From a virus: 11,433 nt of DNA. The stretch lies in the UHGV virus genome UHGV-0104572. The stretch is one strand, 5' to 3'. Positions 1-11,433 of the stretch are shown piece by piece; positions within the stretch are counted from its first letter, which is position 1, and the number at the start of each line of letters is the position of its first letter. The notes beneath the pieces are model-generated. The model saw only the letters and a list, made by a program, of their open reading frames with translations. It ran no database searches and was not told the origin of the DNA. The translations under genes and the position numbers were made by a program.

Positions 1-49
1 CTTCTATTGCCAAGCATATAAATTACACTAGCGCTATAAGAGTGTGTTT

Positions 50-2068
50 TTACATTACTGTAATAATAAAATCCAAATCAACATTGGCACCTGTATTATT
101 AAATGTCTTAACCGTAATTGAATAGTCTGAATCCCTTGAGAAACTTGAATATCTACCAGATCCTCCAAACAATGTAATATTTGGAACGAGTGTTGAAACG
201 TTAAATGTAAAATCTATCTTATATGTTCCTGATGACAGTCTAGATACATTTGATATGTTCTGAGCTAATGAATAAGCACCTGTAGATGAAATATTTGCTC
301 TTGCAGATACCAACCCTTGGCTATTTCTCTGAACTTTTTCCAATCCAGAATATGGTGATTTCATTGAATTTTGGTTGCCAAAGTCTGTAAAAACAAGATG
401 GCTAACACCAAAAGATGAAGGGACGACAAATTGCACTTCTTTAAATGCAGATTCAGCAGAAGCACCAGTGTTAAGAAAACCATTTCCCATCATATTCAAA
501 TAACATTGAACACCAGAACTGAGATCTGATTGATTTGACTGTACTATAACTCTAGATGCGCTAACGGAATCTAAATTATAGTTAAATATTGAATTATTTA
601 TGTTAATAATTTGATTTAAGTTTCTGTTTATGTAAAAACTCACATCAGAACCAGTATTTGATTCGAAATAGCAATTATCAATTGTTGCTGCGACACGACC
701 TGCACCACCAATCAACGCAAACTGTACGCACGAATTAAATGCAATTGGGGTCCCGTTGGAATATGATTTCCCTCCATTTGCTTCAAACGTACAAGTGTCA
801 ATTTTCCAAGCGTGTGCGTGTTGGTTTTCGATACAAAATTCAGCATTGTACTGAAAATCACAGCGTGAAAGTCTTATTGAGTTTGGTCCTGACACTTCAC
901 CAAGTCTTCCTTGTATTGCTGTTTTGTTATAAGTAAATCTACAATTGTTAAACTCAAGATATAATGAATCTTTCAGTTTACACCCAATCTCAAAGCCATC
1001 TATCAGAACATTCCTCATTGAAAGCCTGATGCATTTGTTTATATTTAATCCAAATCCTGACCAGTCAGATCTATTGGCACTTGAATCTACAGATCTGATA
1101 GTGAGGTTTTCTATGGGGAATGATGAAAATACTGAAAGAGAGCCATCAAGATAAATCCCGAAATTATTCTGCGAAGTTTCTGAAGCTAGTATATTTACTA
1201 TTGATAACTTTTCGTCAACACCTCTTATATAAGCTACTTTTCCACCTTCTCTCTGGTGTATTGGTATTGATACTGGTGATTTTAAATTTATAATATTGCC
1301 TGGTAAAACGACCCCAAGCCCAAGAACTCCGGCGGCTGAAATGGCCTTCCTTAGATTTGGTGATAAGTCCAAGTTATCATCAGGATTTCCATGCATACCA
1401 TACATTTCACCTGTGATTTCTTTGATGTCTCTTCTAACCCAACAACCGTTTGATGATGGATGTTCATCTCCAACTCCGTTTACATAGTCTGATACATATG
1501 CATCTCCAATATATGGAACTGATGGTGATATTATACACCCTCCGTCATGCTTCGACCTTATTATGCTGTCATTAAACTCAAAAATACCACCACCACCACT
1601 TCCATCTCGATACCATGACTTTAGTAAAACCTTATCTCCATTATTAGATTCCATTCCATAAAAATCAGATACAGCACCCAACTCACCAACTAAATTAAAA
1701 CCACCTTTACTAGATAATTCCTCTCTTAATTGATCAGGGTCATACTTCAGCACATTCGGAAAATAGAACTGCTTAGCACCATATGCATCATAAACAGCCA
1801 TAGAATGGCCTTGCACGGTAACGAATTTGGCAATCTGTCCGTTATATACCGGATATCCAGCAGCGTTAATGATGATTGGTTGCGAAACAGGAACGTGAGA
1901 TCCGTCTTCGTTCTCCACATAAACCTGAATCTGGTTTTCAGGATTTACCGGGTCAGTGTCAATTTTACCGATATAAATTTTGCCATTGGCTACAGCTTTA
2001 AAAGAACGAGCCATAGTGAAGAGTTGCGAAGGCATGCTCACTACAACATTAGCTGTAATGTCTGTCAT
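50..2068 (-). CDS. Tailspike protein: P22/HK620-type N-terminal head-binding domain, divergent C-terminal receptor-binding domain
   Basis: 672-aa ORF. The first ~115 aa ([11 protein letters not shown]...[11 protein letters not shown]...NVLKYDPDQ) match the conserved P22 gp9 / HK620 tailspike head-binding domain as I recall it. The rest is G/N/S-rich with NxS/T repeats, typical of a beta-helix, but does not match the P22 or HK620 receptor domains I remember. GGAG lies 8 nt upstream of the ATG at 2068. Confidence 0.85.
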
Positions 2069-2126
2069 TTAATTTGCTCCAGATACAAGGAATCGCCGCA
2101 GCATGGCTACGGTGAATTTTGGGCAT

Positions 2127-2150
2127 AAAAAAACCCAGCCGAAGCTGGGT
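2127..2150 (-). terminator. Rho-independent terminator between ant and tailspike
   Basis: Plus strand has an A-run (2127-2133) followed by cccagc-cgaa-gctggg (2134-2149). On the minus-strand RNA this is a GC-rich hairpin followed by a 7-U run, 19 nt after the ant stop. Confidence 0.6.
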
Positions 2151-2168
2151 CGTTGCGTTGGTTATCTG

Positions 2169-3092
2169 TCAGTAGTTATGTACTGAAGGAGGTAATTCTT
2201 TATTCTTAAGTCTCATCCATGCGGAAAGATTCGTTGGTCCGTCTGGCTCATTAATATCAACATCTCGTGTGTGGTTTATTAAAACGTCTCTCGCCATTCC
2301 GATAACATACGAGAACTTATGACCGTAGTCGTAGCATCTGCCGGAATAGTTCGATTGAATTTGTTTTAGCGCCGGATACAGTTCGCGGAATAATGCCTGC
2401 GAACGGTTGGCATAATCCCATAACCATACAAGGCTGTTTGCTTCTTTTGCAGAAAGCTCGTTGGTTTTCTTCTCTTGTTTGCCAATGAACTCACCTTCAA
2501 GTGGAACTCGAGCTGCAAGTGATAGTGCTTCGGTAAACTGCTCCTCACTGATTTCTTTGTACGAACATCCAAAATGGGATTTTAGTGACGACCACATGGT
2601 GATCATCGCCTTAGCCTGTTTTTCTTTTGGCAGAGACTGACCGCGACTCATGACGAGTTGTTTAATGGCTTCCTGCTGTTCAGTGGTGATTTTACCCGGC
2701 AACGCTTTTTTAGCTTTGCGTGGGTTAACTACATGGCCTTTAGTCCAGTACTCGTATAGCACATCGTCACACTCTTCTTGATACTGGATTACATTGTCGC
2801 GGATTTCAGGGCGGACTTTGTTAGGGCTGATGGTTTGCAACCAGCCATTCAGTTTACGTAAAGCAAGGCAAATCATGGTCTGCACACCGCCAACTGAAGG
2901 TATTGCGATTTCCACAATTCCTTTAGCAAATCTTTGTTTTAACTTTGTAAACTGTGAAGCCCAATCCATACCCATTCCCTCAACGATAGGTTTCATTGGG
3001 GTGTACGGCTCACCGTTGTGATTGACAACATAAAGCTCTGCGCCGTGGAATGGTACATTGATAGTAGATACTGCTGTTGCTATACTTTTCAT
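2169..3092 (-). CDS. ant: Antirepressor Ant (P22 immI-type)
   Basis: 307-aa ORF directly downstream of arc on the same strand, the same order as P22 arc-ant-gene 9. The N-terminus (SIA..A..T..VPF.G.E...) resembles what I recall of P22 Ant and AntA-type antirepressor domains. AGGAA lies 8 nt before the ATG. Confidence 0.7.
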
Positions 3093-3161
3093 GTCGTTAA
3101 TTCCTATGCGTGGTTTTACGATATCGAAGCCCTGACTGTTCCCGCAGTTGGGGCTTCAACT

Positions 3162-3323
3162 TTACGCGCCAATGCGTCCTTCCTTCTTAAAACTTTCCAT
3201 TACTCTCTGATAAATCTCAGAGTTAACAGACCGACCATTCTCTTCCGCCACCTTGCGTACCAAATCCAATACTTCTTTAGGCCACCGCAAATTGAACTGC
3301 GGCATTTTGCTCATTCCTTTCAT
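3162..3323 (-). CDS. arc: Arc repressor (ribbon-helix-helix)
   Basis: Translation from the internal Met gives MKGMSKMPQFNLRWPKEVLDLVRKVAEENGRSVNSEIYQRVMESFKKEGRIGA, 53 aa, essentially identical to P22 Arc with one K/R difference by my recall. The longer 74-aa ORF in the track is an upstream extension running through the operator region. Confidence 0.9.
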   Translation of the reverse strand: MKGMSKMPQFNLRWPKEVLDLVRKVAEENGRSVNSEIYQRVMESFKKEGRIGA

Positions 3324-3339
3324 ATTCACCTCACAATAT

Positions 3340-3356
3340 GGGTCCACGGTGGACCT
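3340..3356. promoter_or_regulatory. Omnt operator (Mnt binding site)
   Basis: Palindrome gGGTCCACGGTGGACCt, matching the 17-bp P22 mnt operator AGGTCCACGGTGGACCT except at the first base. It sits at the predicted Pant start site. Confidence 0.8.
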
Positions 3357-3390
3357 GTTGAGAATGTAGTAGAGTGCTTCTATCATGTCA
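3357..3390. promoter_or_regulatory. Divergent Pant / Pmnt promoter region
   Basis: Minus strand (Pant): -35 TTGACA (plus 3385-3390), 17-bp spacer, -10 TACATT (plus 3362-3367), start site inside Omnt. Plus strand (Pmnt candidate): -35 TTGAGA (3357-3362) and -10 TATCAT (3381-3386), 18-bp spacer. Pmnt placement is less certain. Confidence 0.65.
3366..3386. promoter_or_regulatory. Oarc operator (Arc binding site)
   Basis: Reverse complement reads ATGATAGAAGCACTCTACTAc, matching the P22 arc operator ATGATAGAAGCACTCTACTAT with one end mismatch. It lies between the -35 and -10 of Pant. Confidence 0.75.
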
Positions 3391-3413
3391 ATACACTAAC
3401 TTGGAGTGATGGC

Positions 3414-3668
3414 ATGGCTAGAGATGATCCGCACTTTAACTTCCGCATGCCTTTGGAAGTAAGAGAAAAATTAAAATACAGAGCAGAGTCAAATGGTAGA
3501 TCAATGAACTCAGAATTGTTGCAAATCGTCCAAGATGCTCTATCGAGACCATCTCCTGTAAAAGGTTATCGCAATGAAGCTGAACGATTAGCCGAGATGC
3601 AGGCTGAACAGTTCAAGTCTGTGGTATTTGAGACACTTAAAAACATGTATGGCAAGGATGCAAAATGA
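3414..3668 (+). CDS. mnt: Mnt repressor (maintenance of lysogeny; represses Pant)
   Basis: MARDDPHFNFRMPLEVREKLKYRAESNGRSMNSELLQIVQDALS..., 84 aa, closely matches P22 Mnt as recalled. GGAG lies 7 nt upstream of the ATG. The 216-aa ORF in the track is an unsupported N-terminal extension. Confidence 0.9.
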   Translation: MARDDPHFNFRMPLEVREKLKYRAESNGRSMNSELLQIVQDALSRPSPVKGYRNEAERLAEMQAEQFKSVVFETLKNMYGKDAK

Positions 3669-4246
3669 TCGATTACAACCCAGCAAAAAAAGAAATCATC
3701 GCAGCTAAAAAGTGCCTAGAGCAGATGAAATCATCTACAAACCATGATGATTTTGAAATGCACTGGCGAGAATGTCTTGGGCATATAGAAAAGTCTTTCA
3801 GTAAGTTGCTCTGTGCAACAAAGCCGGTTAGTGGAAAATTTAGCAGCCACTTCAACCAAAAGTTCATGCTTAGAAAAACAGACAAAACACTTGCTTACCT
3901 TCACCAAGCAAGAAATGCTGATCATCATTCCACTATGGAAATCTCAAAACTTGAACCTCCTTATACTACTCTTGGGGCATTTCCGGGAGCAAGAAGCCAT
4001 TATATTAAAGAGTTAATCATTGATTCAACAGGGAAAATAGCAAAATACGAAGGCGACCCTATGATAGTTGAGTTTCATCCAGCAACAACTATGCCTATAA
4101 CCGTAAGAAACCAAGGCAAAGATTATCCACCTCCAACAGAACATCTTGGCGAAAAGCTTGTTGATATACATCCATCTGTTCTTGCCTATCTCGGTATACA
4201 ATTTTATGAAAAATGGATAGATGAGTCGTGTGCAACGTTTAGATAG
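3665..4246 (+). CDS. Hypothetical protein (193 aa), translationally coupled to mnt
   Basis: The ATG overlaps the mnt stop (ATGA). It is a long clean ORF with no transmembrane segment and no motif I recognise. It occupies the mnt-to-sieA interval of a P22-like immI region. Confidence 0.6.
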   Translation: MIDYNPAKKEIIAAKKCLEQMKSSTNHDDFEMHWRECLGHIEKSFSKLLCATKPVSGKFSSHFNQKFMLRKTDKTLAYLHQARNADHHSTMEISKLEPPYTTLGAFPGARSHYIKELIIDSTGKIAKYEGDPMIVEFHPATTMPITVRNQGKDYPPPTEHLGEKLVDIHPSVLAYLGIQFYEKWIDESCATFR

Positions 4247-4463
4247 TTATTTTTGATAATTTCAAGTATTTCCTCTTGACTTTGATTTACCCAAACGTGA
4301 TCACACTCATGAAACCAGATTATGCTTCCTGTTTCGCCTTGTGCAATATAGGTGATCATGTTTTCATTAACAATTATTACTGAGTTATCATGTGCGCAAT
4401 TTAGTTTTATCAATTCGCATATCCTATCGTGACAAAGTAACTAGAAAAACTAAAGAGGTTGGT

Positions 4464-4958
4464 GTGTCTGATTCTATGAGTTACGCTGTGCTAGTTGCCG
4501 CAACTCTATTTATGGGGATAGGGTTGCAGATTGCGTGGTTCTTTTTTTCTAGTTTTATTAAACGCAAAAGAATTGAATCAAGGATATCTGAGATTTCTAT
4601 TGCTATAGGGAAAAATGCTGAAAATCCAGAGAATGAGGCCTGCGCACTGAATTACCTTAAAGAAAAGTTTTCCCCTGAAAAATTTGAAAATAGAATTACT
4701 GATGCTCTTGGATTGGTAATATCAGTAATTCATATGCCACTAAGTTTGCTGATAACAGTGTGGTACTTCGCCATGATCGCCGGAAGAATATTTGGTTTCA
4801 TGAATATAGAGCCTGTAGTTCTTTGGGTTCCAATGATACTGCAACTGTTGTTAAGCGTTGCTATCTTTATTTTTTCTGTTTTTATAAAAATTGTCTTTGG
4901 AAGATACCCCGGAGAAGCTAAGGGATTTAATAAAGAATTCATAAAAACTATAAAATAA
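4464..4958 (+). CDS. Inner-membrane protein, SieA-like superinfection exclusion candidate (by position)
   Basis: Four hydrophobic helices ([21 protein letters not shown]; [21 protein letters not shown]; two more near the C-terminus). Start is either GTG 4464 (GAGG 5 nt upstream) or ATG 4476. Synteny mnt > orf > membrane protein, convergent with the gp16-like gene, matches the P22 sieA position. I cannot recall the SieA sequence to confirm. Confidence 0.55.
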
Positions 4959-4980
4959 ATGCCGTCCTTGGCTTACAGTG

Positions 4981-6198
4981 CTACTGCCGGGTCGCTTCGT
5001 TAGCTAAGAGCGGGCGCACGGCAGTAGCAGCCTGATTTAGCGCTCTTTCATAAGCTGGCGTTCCAGCTTTAGTGTTTGCCAGACGTAAGAGCGCATTCCT
5101 TGCTGCTTTGGACTCATACAAACGCATCATTGCACCAAAACCAGCCTCAAGCCCCATTGATACTCCAAGAGTCGCAGTTGCGCCAATCGTCCTTATCCTG
5201 TTGGCTTGTGATTGCCCCGTCTGAGTTACTACATTTGCGGTGTCTGACCTTGCTGTTTGCTGTAGAACTTCATGAAGAGCATCGAGCTCTTTCATGTGCT
5301 TTCCAGAAAAAATAGTGTTGTAAATTTCACCGCCTGACTGAGATTTAAGCTTATTAACTTCAGTGATGAACTTGGCTGGAGAGTCACCGGCCTTTTCCGC
5401 TATTTTGCTGACGTAAGCTGCACGCATAGCATCTTTCCCTTTATCATCCAATGCGCTCCAGATTCGTTTCACGTCAGATGGTTTTCTGCTTAATACAACG
5501 GTATTTATAAGTTCAGGACTGGCTTCACTGCTTGCCTTGTTGAGCTTGTTAGCAATGTTTTTATTAAGCACCTTATTATAAACGTTTGCATAATCTGAAT
5601 TTGCTTTAAGGTATTTTGCTGCGTCTGATGCACCGAGGTTTTTAGCAACTGCGTTACGAAGGTCTTTTGACATTGCATTCTCTACCATATTGGTAGCTGC
5701 TTTTGCCTGGTTGGGGAAGACCATAGCATCTCCCTGAACATTAGATCTAAATGCTGTTCTGTGCTGACGCAAGAGATCAAACGTAACATCCAAATCAGTT
5801 GCAGGGTTTGCTAATTCTTCGCGTAGGTTACGCAAGGATGTAAGCAGGCTTTGATTGGCAGACGTCCCAAGCCGTTCCTGTCTTGCGATCGCTGTATTCA
5901 GAGCATTCATAGTGTTTGTGGTATCAACTGCGGCATTCCCCATTTTATTGGTGACGTCATTGATAACAGCGCCAGCGGCATCCTTCCGTCCCCTTAACGT
6001 GGTGGTCAGAGATTTCACCACATCATCCGGGTTGTACTCACCAAAACGGTCAAAATAATTACTTACCAACTTACTACGCGTTGCATATTGCTCCGCTCGC
6101 TTTGAGCCTGTCCCGAGCAAAGCCCCCTCGGCATTCGGGATGGCTGCATTTTGCGGTAAGCACGAACTCAGCCAGAACGACAAACAAAAGGCTATCAA
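4981..6198 (-). pseudogene. DNA ejection protein gp16-like, N-terminally truncated remnant
   Basis: 405-aa Ala/Asn/Lys-rich ORF on the same strand as the tailspike, immediately distal to the sieA-like gene, which is the position of gene 16 in P22. The first ~20 codons are antisense to the Q fragment, so the homologous part probably starts near 6130. Identification is by synteny and composition only. Confidence 0.4.
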
Positions 6199-6475
6199 CT
6201 ATCTGATGCAATTTGCACACAAGGTATCGGGGAAATACCGTGGTGTGGCAAAGCTCGAAGGAAATACTAAGGCAAAGGTACTGCAAGTGCTCGCAATATT
6301 CGCTTATGAGGATTATTGCCGTAGTGCCGCGACGCCGGGTGCAAGATGCAGAGATTGCCACGGTACAGGCCGTGCGGTTGATATAGCCAAAACGGAGCAG
6401 TGGGGGAGAGTTGTTGAGAAAGAGTGCGGAAGATGCAAAGGTGTCGGCTATTCAAGAATGCCAGCAATCAGCTAA
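6131..6475 (+). pseudogene. Q: Antiterminator Q (lambda-type), internal fragment
   Basis: [51 protein letters not shown]...CRDCHGTGRAVDIAKTEQWGRVVEKECGRCKGVGYSRMPA matches the central part of lambda Q as recalled. The N-terminal ~50 aa and the C-terminal part are missing, and the strand is inverted relative to what a collinear prophage would have. Confidence 0.8.
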
Positions 6476-6477
6476 CT

Positions 6478-6638
6478 TAACGACGCCCATGTTTCACTCC
6501 TACTTTGGCTAGTCTGTAAACACCAACAAGGCGCTCTGCGAACGCCCTGTTATTTGCTGCGGCTACCACTAATCCCTCAGGTGAATCAGGGTGTCGAATC
6601 TCTTCTTTTTCCTGGTATTTCTTACGACGTTTTGTCAT
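6478..6638 (-). CDS. Short ORF (53 aa) downstream of cII, probably the 5' remnant of a deleted gene
   Basis: AGGAG lies 5 nt before the ATG at 6638 (MTKRRKKYQEKEEIRHPDSPEGLVVAAANNRAFAERLVGVYRLAKVGVKHGRR). Its stop coincides with the end of Q homology, suggesting truncation at a junction. It is absent from the ORF track because it is under 60 aa. Confidence 0.3.
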
Positions 6639-6670
6639 AATTACTCCTGTAGATTGATCCAGTAATGACC

Positions 6671-6967
6671 TCAGAATTGCATATCAATTTGCTTAAAATC
6701 CTCGGTGGCGGCCGGGGATTTTTTCTTTGTGATTCCATCCAATGCATACTTAAAAGCCCTGCTAATCGGACTGATGTCTGATGCCATTCCGAAAGCACAC
6801 AAGACCGAAGCAATAAACCTCCAGTCCGTTCTGCTTATCTTCGATTCATGACAGCCAATCATCTTTGCCAGACCGCGCTGGGTAAGCGTTGACAGGTTGA
6901 TGAGTAAATCAGTTTCAGCGCGATCAATTTCTCGCTGTGTTGGCTTGCTATAACTTGCTTGTGTCAT
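6671..6967 (-). CDS. cII: CII-like transcriptional activator
   Basis: 98 aa. The helix-turn-helix segment LAKMIGCHESKISR parallels lambda CII AEAVGVDKSQISR, and the C-terminus KKKSPAATEDFKQIDMQF parallels KKRPAATERSEQIQMEF. It sits downstream of cro on the same strand. Confidence 0.8.
   Translation of the reverse strand: MTQASYSKPTQREIDRAETDLLINLSTLTQRGLAKMIGCHESKISRTDWRFIASVLCAFGMASDISPISRAFKYALDGITKKKSPAATEDFKQIDMQF
6945..6958 (+). promoter_or_regulatory. CII-binding direct repeat TTGC-N6-TTGC (PRE -35 region)
   Basis: TTGCtataacTTGC overlaps the 5' end of cII and points toward cro and cI on the plus strand, as PRE does in lambda. Confidence 0.55.
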
Positions 6968-7051
6968 TTGTTAATTTTCCAATAGTGAATAGTTAGTTGA
7001 AAGGTATGCGTGGAAACGCATATGGCCTTAGTTGGTCAGATATCTTGGGGC

Positions 7052-7097
7052 TCGCTTTGTCAGCGACGTAGGACGAATGTCCATTGTGAAAAGAGCG
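7052..7097 (-). promoter_or_regulatory. nutR: boxA-like CGCTCTTTT plus boxB hairpin with GACAA loop
   Basis: Minus strand has CGCTCTTTT (plus 7089-7097; consensus boxA is CGCTCTTTA) and UCGCU-GACAA-AGCGA (plus 7052-7066), between cro and cII. The loop is the P22-type GACAA rather than the lambda GAAAA. Confidence 0.6.
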
Positions 7098-7104
7098 GTG
7101 TTAC

Positions 7105-7305
7105 TTATGCAGTTGTTTTTTTGTTACTTGGGAAGGGCTTTATTTCTTCCGCATAAACGCTTCCATCAGCGTTTATAGTTAAAAAAATCTTTCGGCCTGC
7201 ATGAATGGCCTTGTTAATCGCGCTTTGATATACGCCGAGATCTTTAGCCGTCTTGGTTTGCCCAAAGCGTATTGCATAATCTTTCAGGGTTATGCGTTGT
7301 TCCAT
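7105..7305 (-). CDS. cro: Cro repressor
   Basis: [66 protein letters not shown], 66 aa, is lambda Cro with about two conservative substitutions. TAAGGAGG precedes the start. Confidence 0.95.
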
Positions 7306-7329
7306 ACAACCTCCTTAGTACAGGCAACC

Positions 7330-7399
7330 ATTATCACCGCTAGAGGTAAAATAGTCAACACGCACGGTGTTAGAAGTTTATCCCTTGCGGTGATAGATT
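7330..7399. promoter_or_regulatory. OR1-OR2-OR3 operators with divergent PR and PRM promoters
   Basis: OR1 7332-7348 is TACCTCTaGCGGTGATA on the minus strand, one G>A change from lambda. OR2 7356-7372 and OR3 7379-7395 match lambda exactly. PR on the minus strand: -10 GATAAT (plus 7330-7335), -35 TTGACT (plus 7353-7358). PRM on the plus strand: -10 TAGATT (7394-7399); the cI ATG is at the expected leaderless start. Confidence 0.9.
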
Positions 7400-7402
7400 T
7401 AA

Positions 7403-8119
<717 letters not shown>

Positions 8120-8150
8120 TTGTTTTATTTTTCACGTAATAGGATGATTT

Positions 8151-8492
8151 ATGACACAATTTCAACTTGCATTAATCGCTAGAGAAGTTGATGGAGAAGT
8201 CATCCATCTTCGCACCAAAGACGGATACATCAATGCCACCGCGATGTGCAAGTCTGCGGGGAAGCTACTTGCTGACTATACACGACTAAAAACAACACAA
8301 GATTTTTTTGATGAATTATCACGCGATATGGGGATTCCCATATCGGAGTTAATTCAATCATTTAAAGGCGGAAGAGCAGAGAATCAAGGGACTTGGGTTC
8401 ATCCAGACATCGCAATTAATTTAGCTCAGTGGCTATCTCCAAAATTTGCAGTGCAAGTATCGAGATGGGTGCGTGAGTGGATGTCAGGTTAA
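8151..8492 (+). CDS. KilA-N domain protein in the rexAB slot
   Basis: 113 aa; AGGA lies 6 nt before the ATG. The segment GYINATAMCKSAGK...GTWVHPDIAINLAQWLSPKFAVQVSRWV matches my recollection of the KilA-N signature (GT[WY]VHP..A...A.W.SP.F...V). It starts 31 nt after the cI stop, where lambda carries rexA. Confidence 0.65.
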   Translation: MTQFQLALIAREVDGEVIHLRTKDGYINATAMCKSAGKLLADYTRLKTTQDFFDELSRDMGIPISELIQSFKGGRAENQGTWVHPDIAINLAQWLSPKFAVQVSRWVREWMSG

Positions 8493-8531
8493 AGAGCGCC
8501 TGCCGAACTCCCTATCCACCTTAAGCGGTAT

Positions 8532-8910
8532 ATGACAAACCGAGGCAGAGTTCCTCATACGCACTTTTCTATGCTTAATGAACTGACGTTTAACTTGGTT
8601 GCGCCACTTGAACAGGCCGGATATACGCTGCCAGAAAAAATGGTCCCTGATATTTCAGAGGGTAGGGTTTTCTCGCAATGGCTCCGTGACAACCGGGGGG
8701 TTGAGCCGAAGACATTCCCAACATATAACCATGAGTACCCAGATGGCCGGACATTCCCGGTACGTCTATACCCAAACGAATATTGCAGATTTCAAACAAT
8801 ACTTCAACGAAGTGTGGCTGCCTCAGTACGCTCCTAAATATTTTGCTGAACGAGACCAAAGGGCATTGACGTTGATTGAGAAAATCATGCTACCTGACCT
8901 TGATTCCTAA
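8532..8910 (+). pseudogene. Unknown ORF with a frame break (frame 0 for 8532-~8780, frame +1 onward to 8910)
   Basis: Two overlapping ORFs (8532-8837 and 8599-8910) each look protein-like only in complementary halves: ...RTFPVRLYPNEY in one, ADFKQYFNEVWLPQYAPKYFAERDQRALTLIEKIMLPDLDS in the other. The break is near 8778-8786, not at a homopolymer. The first half is in the same frame as the KilA-N ORF, separated by a single TAA and 13 open codons. Confidence 0.5.
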
Positions 8911-8918
8911 ATGTTATT

Positions 8919-8944
8919 CCCGGCCACAGAGCCGGGTTTTCTTT
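8919..8944 (+). terminator. t_imm-like rho-independent terminator
   Basis: cccggc-cacaga-gccggg followed by TTTTCTTT, 9 nt after the stop at 8910. Sequence from here to OL matches the lambda rexB-to-OL interval as recalled. Confidence 0.7.
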
Positions 8945-9096
8945 GCCTCACGATCCCCCTCACCCAAGAACACATAACCAATTGTATCTATTTGAAAATA
9001 AATAGATACAACTCACTAAACATAGCAGTTCAGATCTCTCACCTACCAAACAATGCACCCCTGCAAAAAATAAATTCATATAAAAAACATACAGAT

Positions 9097-9167
9097 AACC
9101 ATCTGCGGTGATGAATTATCTCTAGCGGTGTTGACATAAATACCACTGGCGGTGATACTAAACACAT
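9097..9167 (+). promoter_or_regulatory. OL3-OL2-OL1 operators and PL promoter
   Basis: OL3 9097-9113, OL2 9117-9133 (tatctctAgcggtgttg, one G>A versus lambda), OL1 9141-9157 (exact). PL -35 TTGACA 9131-9136 and -10 GATACT 9154-9159, reading rightward. Confidence 0.9.
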
Positions 9168-9227
9168 CAGCAGGACGCACTACTCACCAGGGCGGTGAAT
9201 ATACAACGATTCAAATATGAATCTACG

Positions 9228-9242
9228 GCGCTGACAAAGCGC
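9228..9242 (+). promoter_or_regulatory. nutL boxB (P22-type)
   Basis: GCGCUGACAAAGCGC is a 5-bp stem with a GACAA pentaloop, identical to the P22 nutL boxB as I recall it. It lies ~65 nt downstream of the PL start. I did not find a boxA upstream. Confidence 0.7.
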
Positions 9243-9370
9243 AATAACCAAAGTGAACTTTGGGGTGAATGCAGAAGCTAACCTTCTCGGCGGAGGCGCT
9301 TTGCAATGATTACGCTACCGGAGTTAGTCGCCCGGCTGTATTCACCGCCAAAGTTCACCAGGAGGTCTAT

Positions 9371-9538
9371 ATGACACGCAGAACTCAGTTCAAAGGCAAT
9401 TCACGTTCTCGTCGTCGTGAGCGTTTAAAGGCAAAGGCATTAGCTAACGGCGTACTGGCCCGCGAAGAAGCAATAAGTTCAGAAGTATTACACCGCCCTG
9501 CGCCATCATCAATGTTGCGGCGATCGGCATCACCTTAA
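9371..9538 (+). CDS. N-like antiterminator, C-terminally truncated (55 aa)
   Basis: AGGAGG lies 6 nt before the ATG at 9371. The arginine-rich motif GNSRSRRRERLKAKA resembles the P22 gp24 motif GNAKTRRHERRRKLAIE. Full N proteins are ~100 aa; the last ~15-30 codons here are recT-derived DNA read out of frame. Confidence 0.6.
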   Translation: MTRRTQFKGNSRSRRRERLKAKALANGVLAREEAISSEVLHRPAPSSMLRRSASP

Positions 9539-10236
9539 ACCCAGCCAGCAAACTTGCTTATCTAGTTCCGCGCGACGGCATGGTTTGCCTTGATATCAGT
9601 TATATGGGATTGCTCCATATTGCAATGGAGTCTGGTGTTATCTCATGGGGTCAGGCAAAACTTGTTCATGCTAACGATACCTATGAGTCAAACGGGCTTG
9701 ATAAAGCACCAACCCATAAATACAACGCCTTCGGTGATCGTGGTGATATCGTTGGCGTTTACTGCACAGTTAAGACGCCAGCAGGTGATTATCTAACGGA
9801 AGAGATGAGTCTGGCTGAAATTGAGGCTGTAAGGAAAACAAGCAAGGCGGCATTCAGCGATAAAGGACCATGGGTAAATCACTGGAATGAGATGGCGCGA
9901 AAGACGGTCGTAAAGCGTGCAAGCAAGTATTGGCCTAAGGCATCACGTCTTGATAGTGCTATTCACGTACTAAACGAAGAAGAAGGTGTATGGACTGAAC
10001 CAGTTATGCCGTACAAATCAGAGGAAGATATCCGCGAAGATGAACGGAAACGCCAGCAGGAAATAACGGATAAAGCACAACTTCTTTGTGATGAAATGGC
10101 TCAGGCAGAAAACATGGATGATTTGAAGCGATATTTTGCAGAAGCATATCGCCTGACATCTGGAATGAAATTGCAGCATAACGTACAAGCCATTTACATA
10201 GAATGCAAAGCGAAACTGGAGGTTGCCAGTGAGTAA
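9448..10236 (+). pseudogene. recT: RecT-family recombinase, 5'-truncated remnant
   Basis: The frame is open from 9448. CAIINVAAIGITLNPASKLAYLVPRDG aligns with E. coli RecT SAIVQCSQLGLEPGSALGHAYLLPFG, and KGPWVNHWNEMARKTVVKRASKYWPKA with NGPWVTHWEEMAKKTAIRRLFKYLPVS. The N-terminal part is absent and there is no start codon or RBS for the homologous region. Confidence 0.65.
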
Positions 10237-10711
10237 ACTATATGAAATAGCCAATGAATACGCAAAATTGATGGATTCAGATTTAGAGCCAGAGATGATT
10301 GCTGACACAATAGAAGGCATGGAAGGAGAATTTACCGATAAAATAGAGCAACTTCTTTCCGTCATTAAAAATGAATCTGGTTATGCTGAACGCCTCAAGG
10401 AAGAGGCAAAGTCACTGAATGAGCGAGCCGCAGTAATTCAAAATAAGATTGACAGCATCATATCATATATAGCGTCATCGCTTGAAATGGTAGGCAAGAA
10501 AAAGATTAGAGCAGGTATTCACCAGGTAACAATCCGCAAACCGTCAGAAATTGTAGAAATAATCGACTCAAGCGCCCTTCCTCCTGAATACGTTGAGTTT
10601 GAAACAACAATTAAAGCCGACAAACTGGCAATCAAACACCAACTAAAAGCAGGAATAAATATCCCCGGCGCTCAACTCAAAGTTGGGAAACCTTCACTTC
10701 TTATCAAATAA
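10229..10711 (+). CDS. Siphovirus Gp157-like coiled-coil protein
   Basis: GGAGG lies 7 nt before GTG 10229, overlapping the recT stop. The ~160-aa protein has a charged coiled-coil N-terminal half and a C-terminal ...PPEYVEF...KAGINIPGAQL segment, resembling the Gp157 family often found next to recT/erf. Family assignment is from memory. Confidence 0.5.
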   Translation: MSKLYEIANEYAKLMDSDLEPEMIADTIEGMEGEFTDKIEQLLSVIKNESGYAERLKEEAKSLNERAAVIQNKIDSIISYIASSLEMVGKKKIRAGIHQVTIRKPSEIVEIIDSSALPPEYVEFETTIKADKLAIKHQLKAGINIPGAQLKVGKPSLLIK

Positions 10712-10774
10712 CGGTATCGCCTATGAAAAAGACTCCATGGGAGAAATGGGAAGTCGATTTCTTGCGCGAAGTAG

Positions 10775-11383
10775 CGGCGACAAGGCCATATAACAACAAA
10801 CCCTGTCGCTGCCACTCGCGCAGCAAAATCAGAGGTAAGGAGATCAAGACTTACGGCTGACGAATACCTGAAAATTTATCAAGCAGCAGAATCATCACCA
10901 TGTTGGCTCAGACTTGCAATGGAACTGGCTGTTGTTACCGGGCAGCGAGTTGGTGATTTATGCGAAATGAAGTGGTCTGATATCGTAGATGGATATCTTT
11001 ATGTCGAGCAAAGCAAAACAGGCGTAAAAATTGCCATCCCAACAACATTGCATGTTGATGCTCTCGGGATATCAATGAAGGAAACACTTGATAAATGCAA
11101 AGAGATTCTTGGCGGAGAAACCATAATTGCATCTACTCGTCGTGAACCGCTTTCATCCGGCACAGTATCAAGGTATTTTATGCGCGCACGAAAAGCATCA
11201 GGTCTTTCCTTCGAAGGGGATCCGCCTACCTTTCACGAGTTGCGCAGTTTGTCTGCAAGACTCTATGAGAAGCAGATAAGCGATAAGTTTGCTCAACATC
11301 TTCTCGGGCATAAGTCGGACACCATGGCATCACAGTATCGTGATGACAGAGGCAGGGAGTGGGACAAAATTGAAATCAAATAA
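10775..11383 (+). pseudogene. int: Integrase (lambda Int-type) remnant, C-terminal catalytic domain only
   Basis: From ~10784 the frame reads GHITTNPVAATRAAKSEVRRSRLTADEYLKIYQAAESSPCWLRLAMELAVVTGQRVGDL...HLLGHKSDTMASQYRDDRGREWDKIEIK, about 98% identical to lambda Int from residue ~168 to the end, including the catalytic Tyr in SQYRDD. An in-frame TAG at 10772 and unrelated upstream sequence replace the arm-binding and core-binding domains. Confidence 0.9.
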
Positions 11384-11410
11384 TGATTTTATTTTGACTG
11401 ATAGTGACCT
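11380..11410 (+). other. att site P' arm: Int arm-type binding sites P'3, P'2, P'1
   Basis: ATAATGATTT, ATTTTGACTG and ATAGTGACCT are reverse complements of the lambda P' arm-type sites (consensus C/AAGTCACTAT), overlapping and just after the int stop. The core would lie beyond the window end. Confidence 0.75.
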
Positions 11411-11433
11411 GTTCGTTGCAACAAATTGATAAG

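Follow-up and report, generated by a model that had tools for sequence, protein, structure and literature searches.

The element described here resembles cryptic, defective lambdoid prophages of E. coli such as DLP12, Rac, Qin, and KplE1/CPS-53 and fits the general picture of prophage decay (PMC7744054): it is likewise locked at its attachment site with a damaged integrase and without xis, a large internal deletion has taken its replication, lysis, and head genes, and regulatory and accessory genes are left at its ends, with IS elements taking part in the decay. Unlike those prophages, it has a virion arm of P22 type, with tailspike and immI, and not of lambda type, and graded precursors and derivatives are still present in the population that carries the remnant. 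The cryptic prophages of K-12 are widely shared across E. coli, whereas this remnant is limited to one recent clone.

On the P22-like side, the locus keeps the order and orientation known from the P22 immI region (gene 16 - sieA - mnt - arc - sar - ant - gene 9), with a close match of Arc, SieA (151/164 aa, 92%), and the control region and a full-length sar. It departs from P22 in carrying orf193 in place of ORF59a between mnt and sieA, in an Ant whose central part is just ≈60% identical, in an unrelated tailspike receptor-binding domain, in a truncated gene 16, and in a derived T>C change in the −10 hexamer of Pant. On the other side, cI, cro, and OR1-3 have lambda specificity, and cII, gp53, nutL, and the beginning of N are HK97-type, but a dead bstA-type gene occupies the place where rexAB (lambda) or gp48-49 (HK97) follow cI, and N and O are cut after codons 43 and 8, respectively. 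As with BTP1 BstA (PMC8585504), this gene lies directly downstream of the prophage repressor, and its intact allele combines an N-terminal KilA-N domain with a BstA C-terminal domain; unlike BTP1 bstA, the copy here is a pseudogene. The intact homologue, at 253 aa, is also shorter than the ≈300-aa family profiles.

A defective prophage at the lambda attachment site

The window, that is, the whole 11,433-bp stretch that we analyzed, is likely nearly all of an ≈11.9-kb dead lambda/P22-type prophage that sits at lambda attB in one E. coli clone. The initial annotation had read it as a defective prophage remnant, and this reading holds: an identical arrangement is found in independent assemblies, inserted at lambda attB in the order ybhC / remnant / ybhB-bioA, where ybhC-ybhJ-ybhI flanks one end and ybhB-bioABFCD-uvrB the other. 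The source scaffold runs on past the window end as ...GATAAGCAATGC-TTTTTTATA..., with the attL core TTAGTATAAAAAAGC 24 nt beyond that end and ybhC after it; the P arm of attR is ≈270 to 420 nt left of position 1. By sequence comparison, the virion and immI arm is P22-like, and the immunity and integration modules are of lambda/HK97 type. On its own, the element can neither excise nor replicate.

Table 1. Features of the window, with strand and state; "intact" denotes a gene as long as its reference and free of internal stops.
Feature	Position	Strand	State and evidence
Tailspike (P22 gp9 type)	50..2068	-	672 aa, intact; Pfam Head_binding 1-113
ant (antirepressor)	2169..3092	-	307 aa, intact; P22_AR_N and P22_AR_C complete; phrog_245
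sar antisense RNA gene, negative regulator of ant	3094..3161	+	Rfam RF00262
arc	3162..3323	-	53 aa, intact; 52/53 aa identical to P22 Arc
immI control region (Pant, Pmnt, Omnt, Oarc)	3324..3416	.	96% identical to P22
mnt	3417..3668	+	83 aa, intact
orf193, moron	3665..4246	+	intact; phrog_23516 over 1-193/193
sieA (superinfection exclusion)	4464..4958	+	164 aa, intact; phrog_7745 1-164/164
gp16', dead ejection-protein fragment	4981..6134	-	C-terminal ≈384/612 codons; phrog_770 positions 256-663
Q' (lambda-type antiterminator)	6135..6467	+	lambda Q codons ≈49-160; inverted vs cro and cII
O', start of replication gene O	6466..6490	-	first ≈8 codons; at inversion junction
HK97 gp53-like gene	6477..6638	-	53 aa, intact; phrog_1331 1-53/53
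cII	6671..6967	-	98 aa, intact; phrog_191 full length; 97/98 aa identical to HK97
cro	7105..7305	-	66 aa, intact; 64/66 aa identical to lambda Cro
OR1-OR2-OR3, PR, PRM	7306..7405	.	comparison with lambda
cI (lambda-immunity repressor)	7406..8119	+	237 aa, intact
bstA-type abortive-infection pseudogene (KilA-N + BstA_C)	8151..8910	+	two lesions
OL1-3, pL, HK97-type nutL	9090..9260	+	OL1, pL −35, pL −10 as in lambda
N' (antiterminator N)	9371..9499	+	first 43 codons; phrog_271; fused out of frame to recT'
recT', dead	9500..10236	+	last ≈245/303 codons; Pfam RecT model positions 60-186 only
gp157-family gene	10229..10711	+	160 aa, intact; phrog_253 6-167/169
int' (lambda/HK97 integrase)	10795..11383	+	C-terminal 196/356 codons
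attL P' arm start	11384..11433	.	

Gene content and predicted residual function

Comparison with reference genes upheld most of the initial gene calls. The tailspike, ant, arc, mnt, orf193, cII, cro, and cI are intact as proposed, as is the "membrane protein," which is SieA by its phrog_7745 match and its identity to the P22 protein (the longest sieA ORF begins at 4392). The proposed operators and promoters are likewise all present (OR1-3, PR, PRM, OL1-3, pL, Pant, Pmnt, Omnt, and Oarc, with nutL in addition). Truncation of gp16, Q, N, recT, and int was confirmed, with O also cut, and the replication, lysis, and head genes are missing as stated, together with the nin genes. To these calls we add the sar RNA, the gp53-like gene, and the gp157-family gene, all intact, as well as the inversion of Q' relative to cro and cII and the O' fragment (HK97 homology begins at ≈6460, with the start codon of HK97 O at 6490).

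In the P22-like arm, 662 of the 672 tailspike residues are identical to the 673-aa tailspike of an apparently complete P22-like prophage in E. coli S10. The protein joins a conserved head-binding domain to a rare, low-GC receptor-binding domain that S10 alone carries among 5,426 complete genomes; the exact tailspike protein occurs in 175 blocks of a public collection and the exact Ant protein in 361. The sar match scores 81.8 bits, where the gathering score is 43, and spans model positions 1-68 of 68. A promoter scan recovers both Pant (TTGACA-17-TACATT) and Pmnt. Mnt is identical to P22 Mnt at 63/82 residues and to that of E. coli strain 81 at 83/83, and the orf193 product, which has an invariant R83-x4-H88 motif, may be HEPN-like. 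The dead gp16' fragment, which matches a full 612-aa gene at 100% identity in sister genomes, meets Q' at a 2-nt microhomology; Q' itself matches Pfam Antiterm and phrog_127 (positions 49-114) and corresponds to a longer inverted block, O-P'-Q(1-157), in sister genomes.

In the immunity arm, CI is identical to lambda CI at 233/237 residues and to HK97 CI at 235/237, and the gp53-like protein to its HK97 counterpart at 52/53. OR2 and OR3 are those of lambda, OR1 carries one change common to HK97, and the same OR allele is found in eight apparently complete prophages with identical cI; OL2 and OL3 each differ from lambda by one change. Beyond pL, N' compares with a full N of 111 aa in strain 81, recT' is identical to full-length RecT at 241/244 residues (its 218-aa ORF occurs in 422 blocks), the gp157-family protein matches copies in complete prophages at 154-155/160 residues, and int' matches HK97 Int at 194/195, with a 4-nt microhomology at its junction.

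One call did not survive. The KilA-N ORF (8151-8492), taken to be an intact cargo gene, covers just the first 113 codons of a bstA-type gene that encodes 253 aa when intact. Compared with the intact KilA-N + BstA_C homologue of E. coli ML35, the copy here has a nonsense change, GAA>TAA at 8490 (E114*), and a 2-bp frameshifting deletion after 8782, and it aligns to phrog_6287 as three reading-frame pieces (positions 6-121, 164-253, and 245-301 of 304). The intact homologue matches the PADLOC BstA model (E = 2.5e-20), and the remnant is predicted to yield only a 113-aa KilA-N stub.

The repressor and the exclusion gene probably still work; this is plausible because the CI protein and OR allele match those of apparently complete prophages and SieA is so close to P22 SieA. 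CI made from PRM would bind OR and OL, repress PR and pL, and give immunity to phages of lambda immunity, SieA in the inner membrane would block DNA delivery by P22-like phages, and Mnt, Arc, and sar RNA would hold ant silent. These predicted activities would be by-products of what remains.

One clone with graded stages of decay

All carriers that we found belong to one clone. Between carriers, the ybhC-side flanks compared differ by 0-1 SNP per 8.8 kb, the bio-side flanks by 0-2 SNPs per 9.95 kb, and the remnant itself by 0-4 SNPs. The initial annotation had proposed conservation across strains of the host species as a check on its reading; the carriers found are confined to this clone, and neither the remnant nor its junctions occur in any of 5,426 complete RefSeq E. 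coli genomes.

Within the clone, the structures are graded. Most contigs read, in a sample biased by taking one place per set of neighboring proteins and the 24 blocks with the longest contigs, hold a stage-1 remnant of ≈16 kb with full gp16, an Rz::gp20 fusion, R', and the inverted O-P'-Q; the variant frequencies and nonsynonymous-to-synonymous counts from this sample are not population estimates. The window equals stage 1 minus positions 1346-5934 of the stage-1 sequence L011, a deletion of 4,589 bp, and is thus a late, minority derivative of a commoner, larger remnant via a further 4.6-kb deletion. At least eight further independent deletions or IS5 events have occurred in the same clone. 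In GCA_900450495.1, IS5 stands in place of window 38-4440, with loss of the tailspike, ant, arc, mnt, and orf193; in GCA_048380035.1, IS5 lies in ant at window 2926; and in two sister genomes, cII is deleted and cro partly or mostly deleted or altered. The coding sequences of cI and sieA show no disruption in ≈21 clone genomes sampled (the indels seen in GCA_045581885.1 cI resemble sequencing errors, as ybhC is split there too), and int', recT', N', and the dead bstA are kept in every variant, as cI is.

These structures suggest a history of several illegitimate, microhomology-mediated deletions and one inversion; all junctions have microhomologies of 1-4 nt. The deletions would have taken xis with the 5' half of int, the N-to-recT interval, and the whole stretch that runs from O up to the ejection genes, with bstA already carrying its two inactivating lesions. 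The last step would be the loss of the 4,589 bp between Q codon 49 and gp16 codon ≈208. The surviving genes would then sit on two arms that the deletions have yet to reach, in a clone apparently too young for point decay.

Selection and the retained genes

We find no evidence for selection as the cause of gene retention. Everything missing falls in three contiguous blocks of the prophage map, so the functional-class pattern rests on about three events and not on many gene fates, and intact ORFs are expected because the remnant is young, its carriers being one near-identical clone. The dN/dS comparison with relatives suggested at the outset does not discriminate, with values of 0.02-0.30 for intact genes and 0.02-0.18 for dead fragments. 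SNPs are denser in the remnant than in its flanks (20 versus 4, binomial P = 0.013). The remnant is ordinary and still shrinking.

Selection may have acted mainly against lytic leftovers, such that residual expression from PR and Pant is costly, silencing and central deletions are favored, and the arms are harmless; this reading is tentative. Among its costly products would be Cro, the Rz::gp20-gp16 membrane proteins, and Ant, through its action on repressors that other resident prophages make. Of 19 within-clone SNPs, 4 fall in core promoter hexamers, against ≈0.1 expected by chance, although the count is post hoc. The derived changes are mostly weakening: the PR −35 is altered in two sister genomes at 7355 and 7358 (TTGACT>TTGGCT and >CTGACT), and the Pant −10 change TATATT>TACATT at 3366, derived within the clone as is that at 3357, is carried by the window. 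Neutral drift alone fails to predict these promoter SNPs, which therefore suggest some selection on expression of the remnant, and their clustering hints that it runs mostly towards silencing PR and Pant. Such selection would also fit the independent central deletions and IS events, which number at least eight against 19 SNP events in a clone with almost undiverged flanks, and the published finding that incomplete prophages preferentially lose lytic-function genes (PMC7744054). However, the pL −10 change (GATACT>GATAAT) is an up-mutation, cI should already repress PR, the clustering of the deletions could instead come from a mechanical hot spot, and the statistics suffer from small counts, post hoc testing, and biased sampling.

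Domestication, in which purifying selection for immunity through cI and for exclusion through sieA and the cargo set the survivors and the cargo helps the host, appears unlikely. The undisrupted cI and sieA are as it would predict; the exact CI protein occurs in 2600 blocks of the public collection, apparently complete prophages among them, so homo-immune phages are abundant and immunity could pay; P22 SieA by itself suffices for exclusion (PMC10883804); and the PR −35 down-mutations and the cro deletions, of which there are two independent cases each, would stabilize a cI-on state. Yet int', recT', N', and gp16', which are useless, persist equally well, ORF integrity in so young a clone is uninformative, low dN/dS is shared by dead and intact genes, and orf193 has two nonsynonymous SNPs and one synonymous SNP within the clone. 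The initial annotation had inferred decay under selection for immunity and exclusion, but ant, cro, cII, and other supposedly selected genes are lost in sister genomes, the tailspike-to-orf193 block among them. Of the two cargo loci it took as host-beneficial, one is the twice-broken bstA exclusion gene. In comparable E. coli remnants, cI is frameshifted and sieA IS-split (strain 81) or cI is absent (FDN-9 and O15_8X). What stands of the domesticated-remnant proposal is a defective prophage with functional-looking lambda-type immunity and SieA; its selective retention is unsupported.

An assembly chimera of different prophages, which the mosaic of P22-like, lambda-like, and HK97-like modules, the inverted Q fragment, and coverage of at most 53% of the window by any complete E. 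coli genome might suggest, is extremely improbable and was rejected, as independent assemblies from different assemblers share the arrangement, the 1-4-nt microhomologies are too short for a k-mer mis-join, sister genomes hold precursor structures that account for each junction, and each end runs on into its own side of lambda attB. All 11,433 bp are present at 100% identity in ENA ERZ28598109 scaffold_31, and Logan ERR1190761 holds 9,473 bp of the window (1961-11433), also at 100%.

Gene content and chromosomal site of the remnant

We built a gene map of the window from an ORF listing and profile searches. It reads as a lambdoid prophage map in reverse, with the genes in canonical order; the tailspike/virion and immI arm is P22-like, and the immunity and integration modules are lambda/HK97-like. 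Measured against full-length references, tailspike, ant, arc, mnt, orf193, sieA, cII, cro, and cI are intact, as the initial annotation had stated, whereas the "KilA-N ORF" that it placed in the same list is not. The truncations it described were borne out by profile matches and codon spans, gp16', Q', N', recT', and int' all being shortened (a prime marks a truncated gene), and its full-length "membrane protein" proved to be SieA (phrog_7745 1-164/164, E = 1e-108). Three points had gone unmentioned: Q' lies in inverted orientation, O retains eight codons, and the gp53-like gene, gp157, and the sar RNA are intact.

Features of the window and promoter SNPs within the clone
Feature	Position	Strand	State or change
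tailspike	50-2068	-	full length, no internal stop
ant	2169-3092	-	full length, no internal stop
sar RNA	3094-3161	+	intact
arc	3162-3323	-	full length, no internal stop
Pant/Pmnt control region	between arc and mnt
Pant start site (+1) SNP	3357		edge of Pmnt -35 hexamer
Pant -10 SNP	3366		TATATT>TACATT, derived in window's sub-clade
mnt	3417-3668	+	full length, no internal stop
orf193	3665-4246	+	full length, no internal stop
sieA	4464-4958	+	full length, no internal stop
gp16'	4981-6134	-	matches profile positions 256-663
Q' (lambda-type, inverted fragment)	6135-6467	+	codons ~49-160
O'	after Q'		eight codons surviving
HK97 gp53-like gene	6477-6638	-	intact
cII	6671-6967	-	full length, no internal stop
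cro	7105-7305	-	full length, no internal stop
OR	between cro and cI
PR -35 SNPs	7355, 7358		TTGACT>TTGGCT and >CTGACT, two independent derived singletons; down-mutations
cI	7406-8119	+	full length, no internal stop
bstA-type gene	8151-8910	+	three reading-frame pieces
OL, pL, nutL	between bstA-type gene and N'
pL -10 SNP	9158		GATACT>GATAAT
N'	9371-9499		43 codons
recT'	9500-10236		matches Pfam positions 60-186
gp157	10229-10711		intact
int'	10795-11383		last 196/356 codons
lambda P' arm	right end of window		start only

By ORF listing and profile searches, the window lacks xis, P, nin, and all lysis and head genes. The excision, replication, lysis, and virion-assembly modules are missing or broken (int', N', recT', O', Q', gp16'), as in a defective lambdoid prophage. 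Because xis is absent and only half of int is left, the remnant cannot excise; it cannot replicate either. An antisense ORF of 69 aa between orf193 and sieA (4204-4413, minus strand) matches no family and is unlikely to be a gene.

All 11,433 bp are 100% identical to ENA ERZ28598109 scaffold_31, and a Logan contig of ERR1190761 equals window positions 1961-11433 at 100% identity. Carriers and their context were located by exact-protein look-ups with junction-specific ORFs; an exact search with the gp16'/Q' junction gave 0 matches in viral_contigs and 0 in genome_contigs. To the right of the window lie the attL core TTAGTATAAAAAAGC and then ybhC-ybhJ-ybhI, and to the left a short integrase-fragment spacer and a lambda-like P arm lead into ybhB-bioABFCD-uvrB, placing an att core or arm on both sides of the remnant. 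Since both flanks are the sides of lambda attB, the element is an ~11.9-kb remnant at that site. An assembly chimera is excluded: independent assemblies agree, and microhomology at every junction is only 1-4 nt.

An apparent conflict over the left chromosome boundary was settled when the top E. coli matches proved to carry P22-like attB prophages with the same spacer. This spacer holds an ~80-nt 3' fragment of an IntS/Sf6-type integrase gene (214-296 in the compared locus L031, roughly 130-210 nt to the left of window position 1). It separates the tailspike from the lambda-type P arm of attR and is a scar of the module exchange that supplied the tailspike. In E. coli MS 115-1 the same spacer is found at attB, and the matching sequence in strain S10 adjoins intS at argW.

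One young clone and the history of its remnant

Neither the remnant nor its junctions turned up when the entire window and two junction probes were searched against 5,426 complete RefSeq E. coli genomes; the tailspike receptor-binding domain occurs in one of the 5,426, S10, in an apparently complete prophage at argW. Among public carriers, the recT' ORF occurs in 422 blocks and the tailspike in 175; recT' was used for counting in place of the N'-fusion ORF, which gene callers rarely call (1 contig). The flanks of all carriers found are near-identical, differing by 0-1 SNP over 8.8 kb next to ybhC and by 0-2 over 9.95 kb next to bio, and the carriers therefore constitute one young clone. Domestication would be marked by orthologous remnants across divergent host strains, and the carriers found are a single clone. 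In a clone this young, ORF intactness is uninformative about selection.

Most contigs read carry a larger remnant (~16 kb; stage 1) that matches the window at 100% identity on either side, and the window type, a minority form, is stage 1 minus 4,589 bp (1346-5934 of L011, a stage-1 locus). In stage 1, gp16 is complete (612 aa); next come Rz fused in frame to gp20 (Rz::gp20), an R' fragment, and finally an inverted block O-P'-Q(1-157), which adjoins O'(1-8), gp53, cII, and cro. It follows that the ancestor was a P22-like phage carrying the int/att and the immunity of lambda; complete prophages built this way are also known at lambda attB, as in E. coli VTB96929v and MS 115-1. Between that ancestor and the window lie no fewer than seven rearrangements, plus two point lesions in the bstA-type gene. 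The Rz-gp20 fusion, made by the head-gene deletion, is a chimeric ORF of 525 aa upstream of intact gp16 (L011 3673-5250; 2648-4225 in a second locus, L025) that joins Rz, with its Phage_lysis domain, to the C-terminal part of the ejection protein gp20; if expressed, the chimera could be membrane-active.

Structural change far outpaces point change in the clone and strikes supposedly selected genes too. Variants include an 836-bp P'/Q' deletion, a truncated IS5 joined to Q, a gp20'/Q155 deletion, a gp16'/IS fragment/cro' arrangement that has lost cII and gp53, an IS5 in ant, frameshifts in P' and O, and a 64-bp deletion between orf193 and sieA (4284-4346, inside the antisense ORF, in one sister genome, L053). 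In GCA_900450495.1, a P'/cro' junction is accompanied by an IS5 replacing window positions 38-4440, and tailspike, ant, arc, mnt, and orf193 are gone. Hundreds of public assemblies of one clone hold graded versions of the same remnant, a series usable for comparing deletion with point-mutation rates and for asking whether promoter silencing is selected in early prophage decay.

Immunity and exclusion genes and the case for selective retention

The features of a lambda-type immunity switch are present: cI (233/237 aa identical to lambda) with HTH and S24 autopeptidase domains, Cro (64/66 aa), and tripartite OR and OL. OR2, OR3, OL1, PR, and the -35 and -10 hexamers of pL are identical to those of lambda; OR1, OL2, and OL3 differ by one change each; and the immI control region shares 96% identity with that of P22. 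These comparisons and a promoter scan agree with the initial annotation that operators and promoters had been kept. Eight apparently complete prophages that encode an identical cI share the OR allele, including its unusual PRM -35 (TAGAAG); the allele is therefore a natural, working one. In those eight (L038-L047, locus coordinates ~7720-9100), the slot downstream of cI, the rexAB position, carries different cargo each time, examples being a 301-aa BstA_C protein, HicA-type toxin genes, a P63C protein, a CbiA/ParA-like ATPase, DUF1828, and DUF2335; this site is a hot spot of moron exchange.

SieA shares 151 of 164 aa (92%) with its P22 counterpart, falls in the ~162-164-aa size range of P22-type SieA with homology along its full length, and sits between gene 16 and mnt as in P22. 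P22 SieA blocks DNA delivery by P22-like phages (PMC10883804), and that of the remnant would be expected to do likewise. Judging from homology, cI made from PRM would repress PR and pL and confer immunity to lambda-immunity phages, ant would be held off by Mnt, Arc, and sar, and the tailspike, absent Q and gp23, would lack a route to expression.

The family of orf193, which occupies the place of ORF59a in P22, is very rare, with only 7 homologues among 5.8 billion proteins. R83-x4-H88 is invariant in 8/8 sequences (motif QARNADHH), a second motif reads PPTEHLGEK, and structure prediction gives a four-helix bundle carrying a beta insert (pLDDT 80). HEPN proteins are recognized by an Rx4-6H motif on a four-helix fold; profile searches with orf193 gave zero matches, and a fold search returned only non-specific helical-bundle and HEPN matches. 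From motif and model, orf193 may be a HEPN-type defence moron.

The "KilA-N ORF" (8151-8492), previously taken as intact and as one of two host-beneficial cargo loci, aligns with just positions 6-121 of the BstA profile (304 positions), and the following two frames match positions 164-253 and 245-301. The prophage-encoded bstA locus (Owen et al.) specifies an abortive-infection protein (PMC8585504). Its architecture, KilA-N plus a BstA C-terminal domain in a single protein of ~250-300 aa, is seen in the intact 253-aa allele of E. coli ML35 (KilA-N, 8e-27; PADLOC BstA, E = 2.5e-20) and is broken in the window copy, which begins 31 nt past the cI stop codon, directly downstream of the repressor as expected for bstA. 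Aligned to the ML35 gene, the window copy carries a G>T nonsense change at 8490 (GAA>TAA, codon 114), so that a stop follows codon 113, and a 2-bp deletion after 8782 that shifts the frame. With two inactivating lesions, one of the two "cargo loci" is therefore a dead exclusion gene (hereafter bstA*). Both lesions are common to prophages of the unrelated strains 1008S19 and 81 and are therefore older than this remnant.

Dead fragments also provide an internal control for retention. Genes kept by selection should persist in independent lineages while neutral DNA is lost, and int', recT', N', and bstA* are kept in every clone variant exactly as cI is, while sister genomes have lost tailspike-ant-arc-mnt-orf193, ant alone, or cro with cII. 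We also compared dN/dS against relatives, obtaining 0.02-0.30 where genes are intact and 0.02-0.18 in dead fragments, and did not accept it as a test, since the dead fragments score just as low; low dN/dS reflects the genes' past inside phages, not inside the remnant. ORF integrity and dN/dS against relatives thus cannot demonstrate domestication of a young remnant, a caution for which truncated fragments of the same element, with the same values, serve as the control. Within the clone, the remnant holds 20 SNPs versus 4 in the flanks (binomial P = 0.013); the intact genes have 6 nonsynonymous and 1 synonymous, small counts from a biased sample in which nonsynonymous variants are inflated by a look-up that de-duplicates by protein content. 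SNPs at 6139-6163 (contig end of L052) and 5601-5602 (deletion edge in L053) were discarded as alignment or assembly edge effects.

All of the lost functions fall into three contiguous blocks, so the "functional" pattern can be explained by only about three events. The same central-deletion geometry recurs in other E. coli P22-like remnants, where cI is frameshifted and sieA IS-split (strain 81) or cI is absent (FDN-9, O15_8X). These remnants of unrelated strains (L001, strain 81, argW; L006, FDN-9, sbcB-dacD; L007, O15_8X, argW; L017/L021/L023, argW-dsdX) keep the tailspike-immI arm and have a large central deletion ending in or near gene 16; in L017, the deletion extended into the chromosome, as gp16' adjoins a truncated dsdX. 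At three further loci (L018, L020, L022; locus coordinates ~100-7900), a block of reverse transcriptase (RVT_1), PRTase-CE protein, and resolvase genes lies beside a P22-like remnant and looks like an inserted retron-type or DRT-type defence island.

Defective lambdoid prophages that retain repressor, exclusion, and tail genes are textbook material, and the remnant is a further case of this well-known kind, the cryptic lambdoid prophage. Of the initial interpretation, a remnant with plausibly active immunity and exclusion genes stands; domestication by selection, with beneficial cargo, is unsupported and in part contradicted. Incomplete prophages preferentially lose replication, packaging, and lysis genes and are enriched in tail-fibre, integrase, and transposase genes (PMC7744054), a pattern that the remnant fits without special explanation.

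Promoter changes and central deletions within the clone

The coding sequences of cI and sieA are untouched in about 21 clone genomes. Indels in cI of GCA_045581885.1 were rejected as cI decay and discounted as probable sequencing error because they coincide with other homopolymer-type errors, with ybhC also split and indels in the flanks. Core promoter hexamers hold 4 of the 19 credible within-clone SNP events, against ~0.1 expected by chance in a post hoc test on a small sample. This pattern is unrelated to the cargo genes and distinct from the evidence on which the initial annotation drew.

Together with the recurrent central deletions and two cro deletions, the promoter SNPs fit selection against residual lytic-side expression; they could equally fit selection stabilising the cI-on state. 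Neutral drift does not predict the clustering in promoter hexamers. Our tentative reading, which we regard as possible rather than probable, is that the remnant has been caught in adaptive silencing within a very recent clone, with selection on promoter activity and residual lytic-side genes, not on "useful" genes, driving early domestication. Behind it stand the two PR -35 down-mutations, the stepwise Pant -10/+1 changes, the pL -10 change, the independence of the two cro deletions, and the central deletions described below. If adaptive silencing is true, the series would be a natural time series of early steps in prophage domestication. The clone-wide deletions and promoter mutations are the one thread worth following.

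The clone has at least eight independent central deletions, several with end-points only a few nucleotides from Q codon 49. In separate sister genomes, the shared point lies at window position 6133-6137 (Q codon ~49), or ~1345 in L011, ~712 in L010, and ~170-200 in L009, and a third deletion has its end-point 37 nt away. No long inverted repeat that would explain the cluster was found in the stage-1 structure; the microhomologies are AT for the window type (4,589 bp) and TTCG for the 836-bp deletion of L010.
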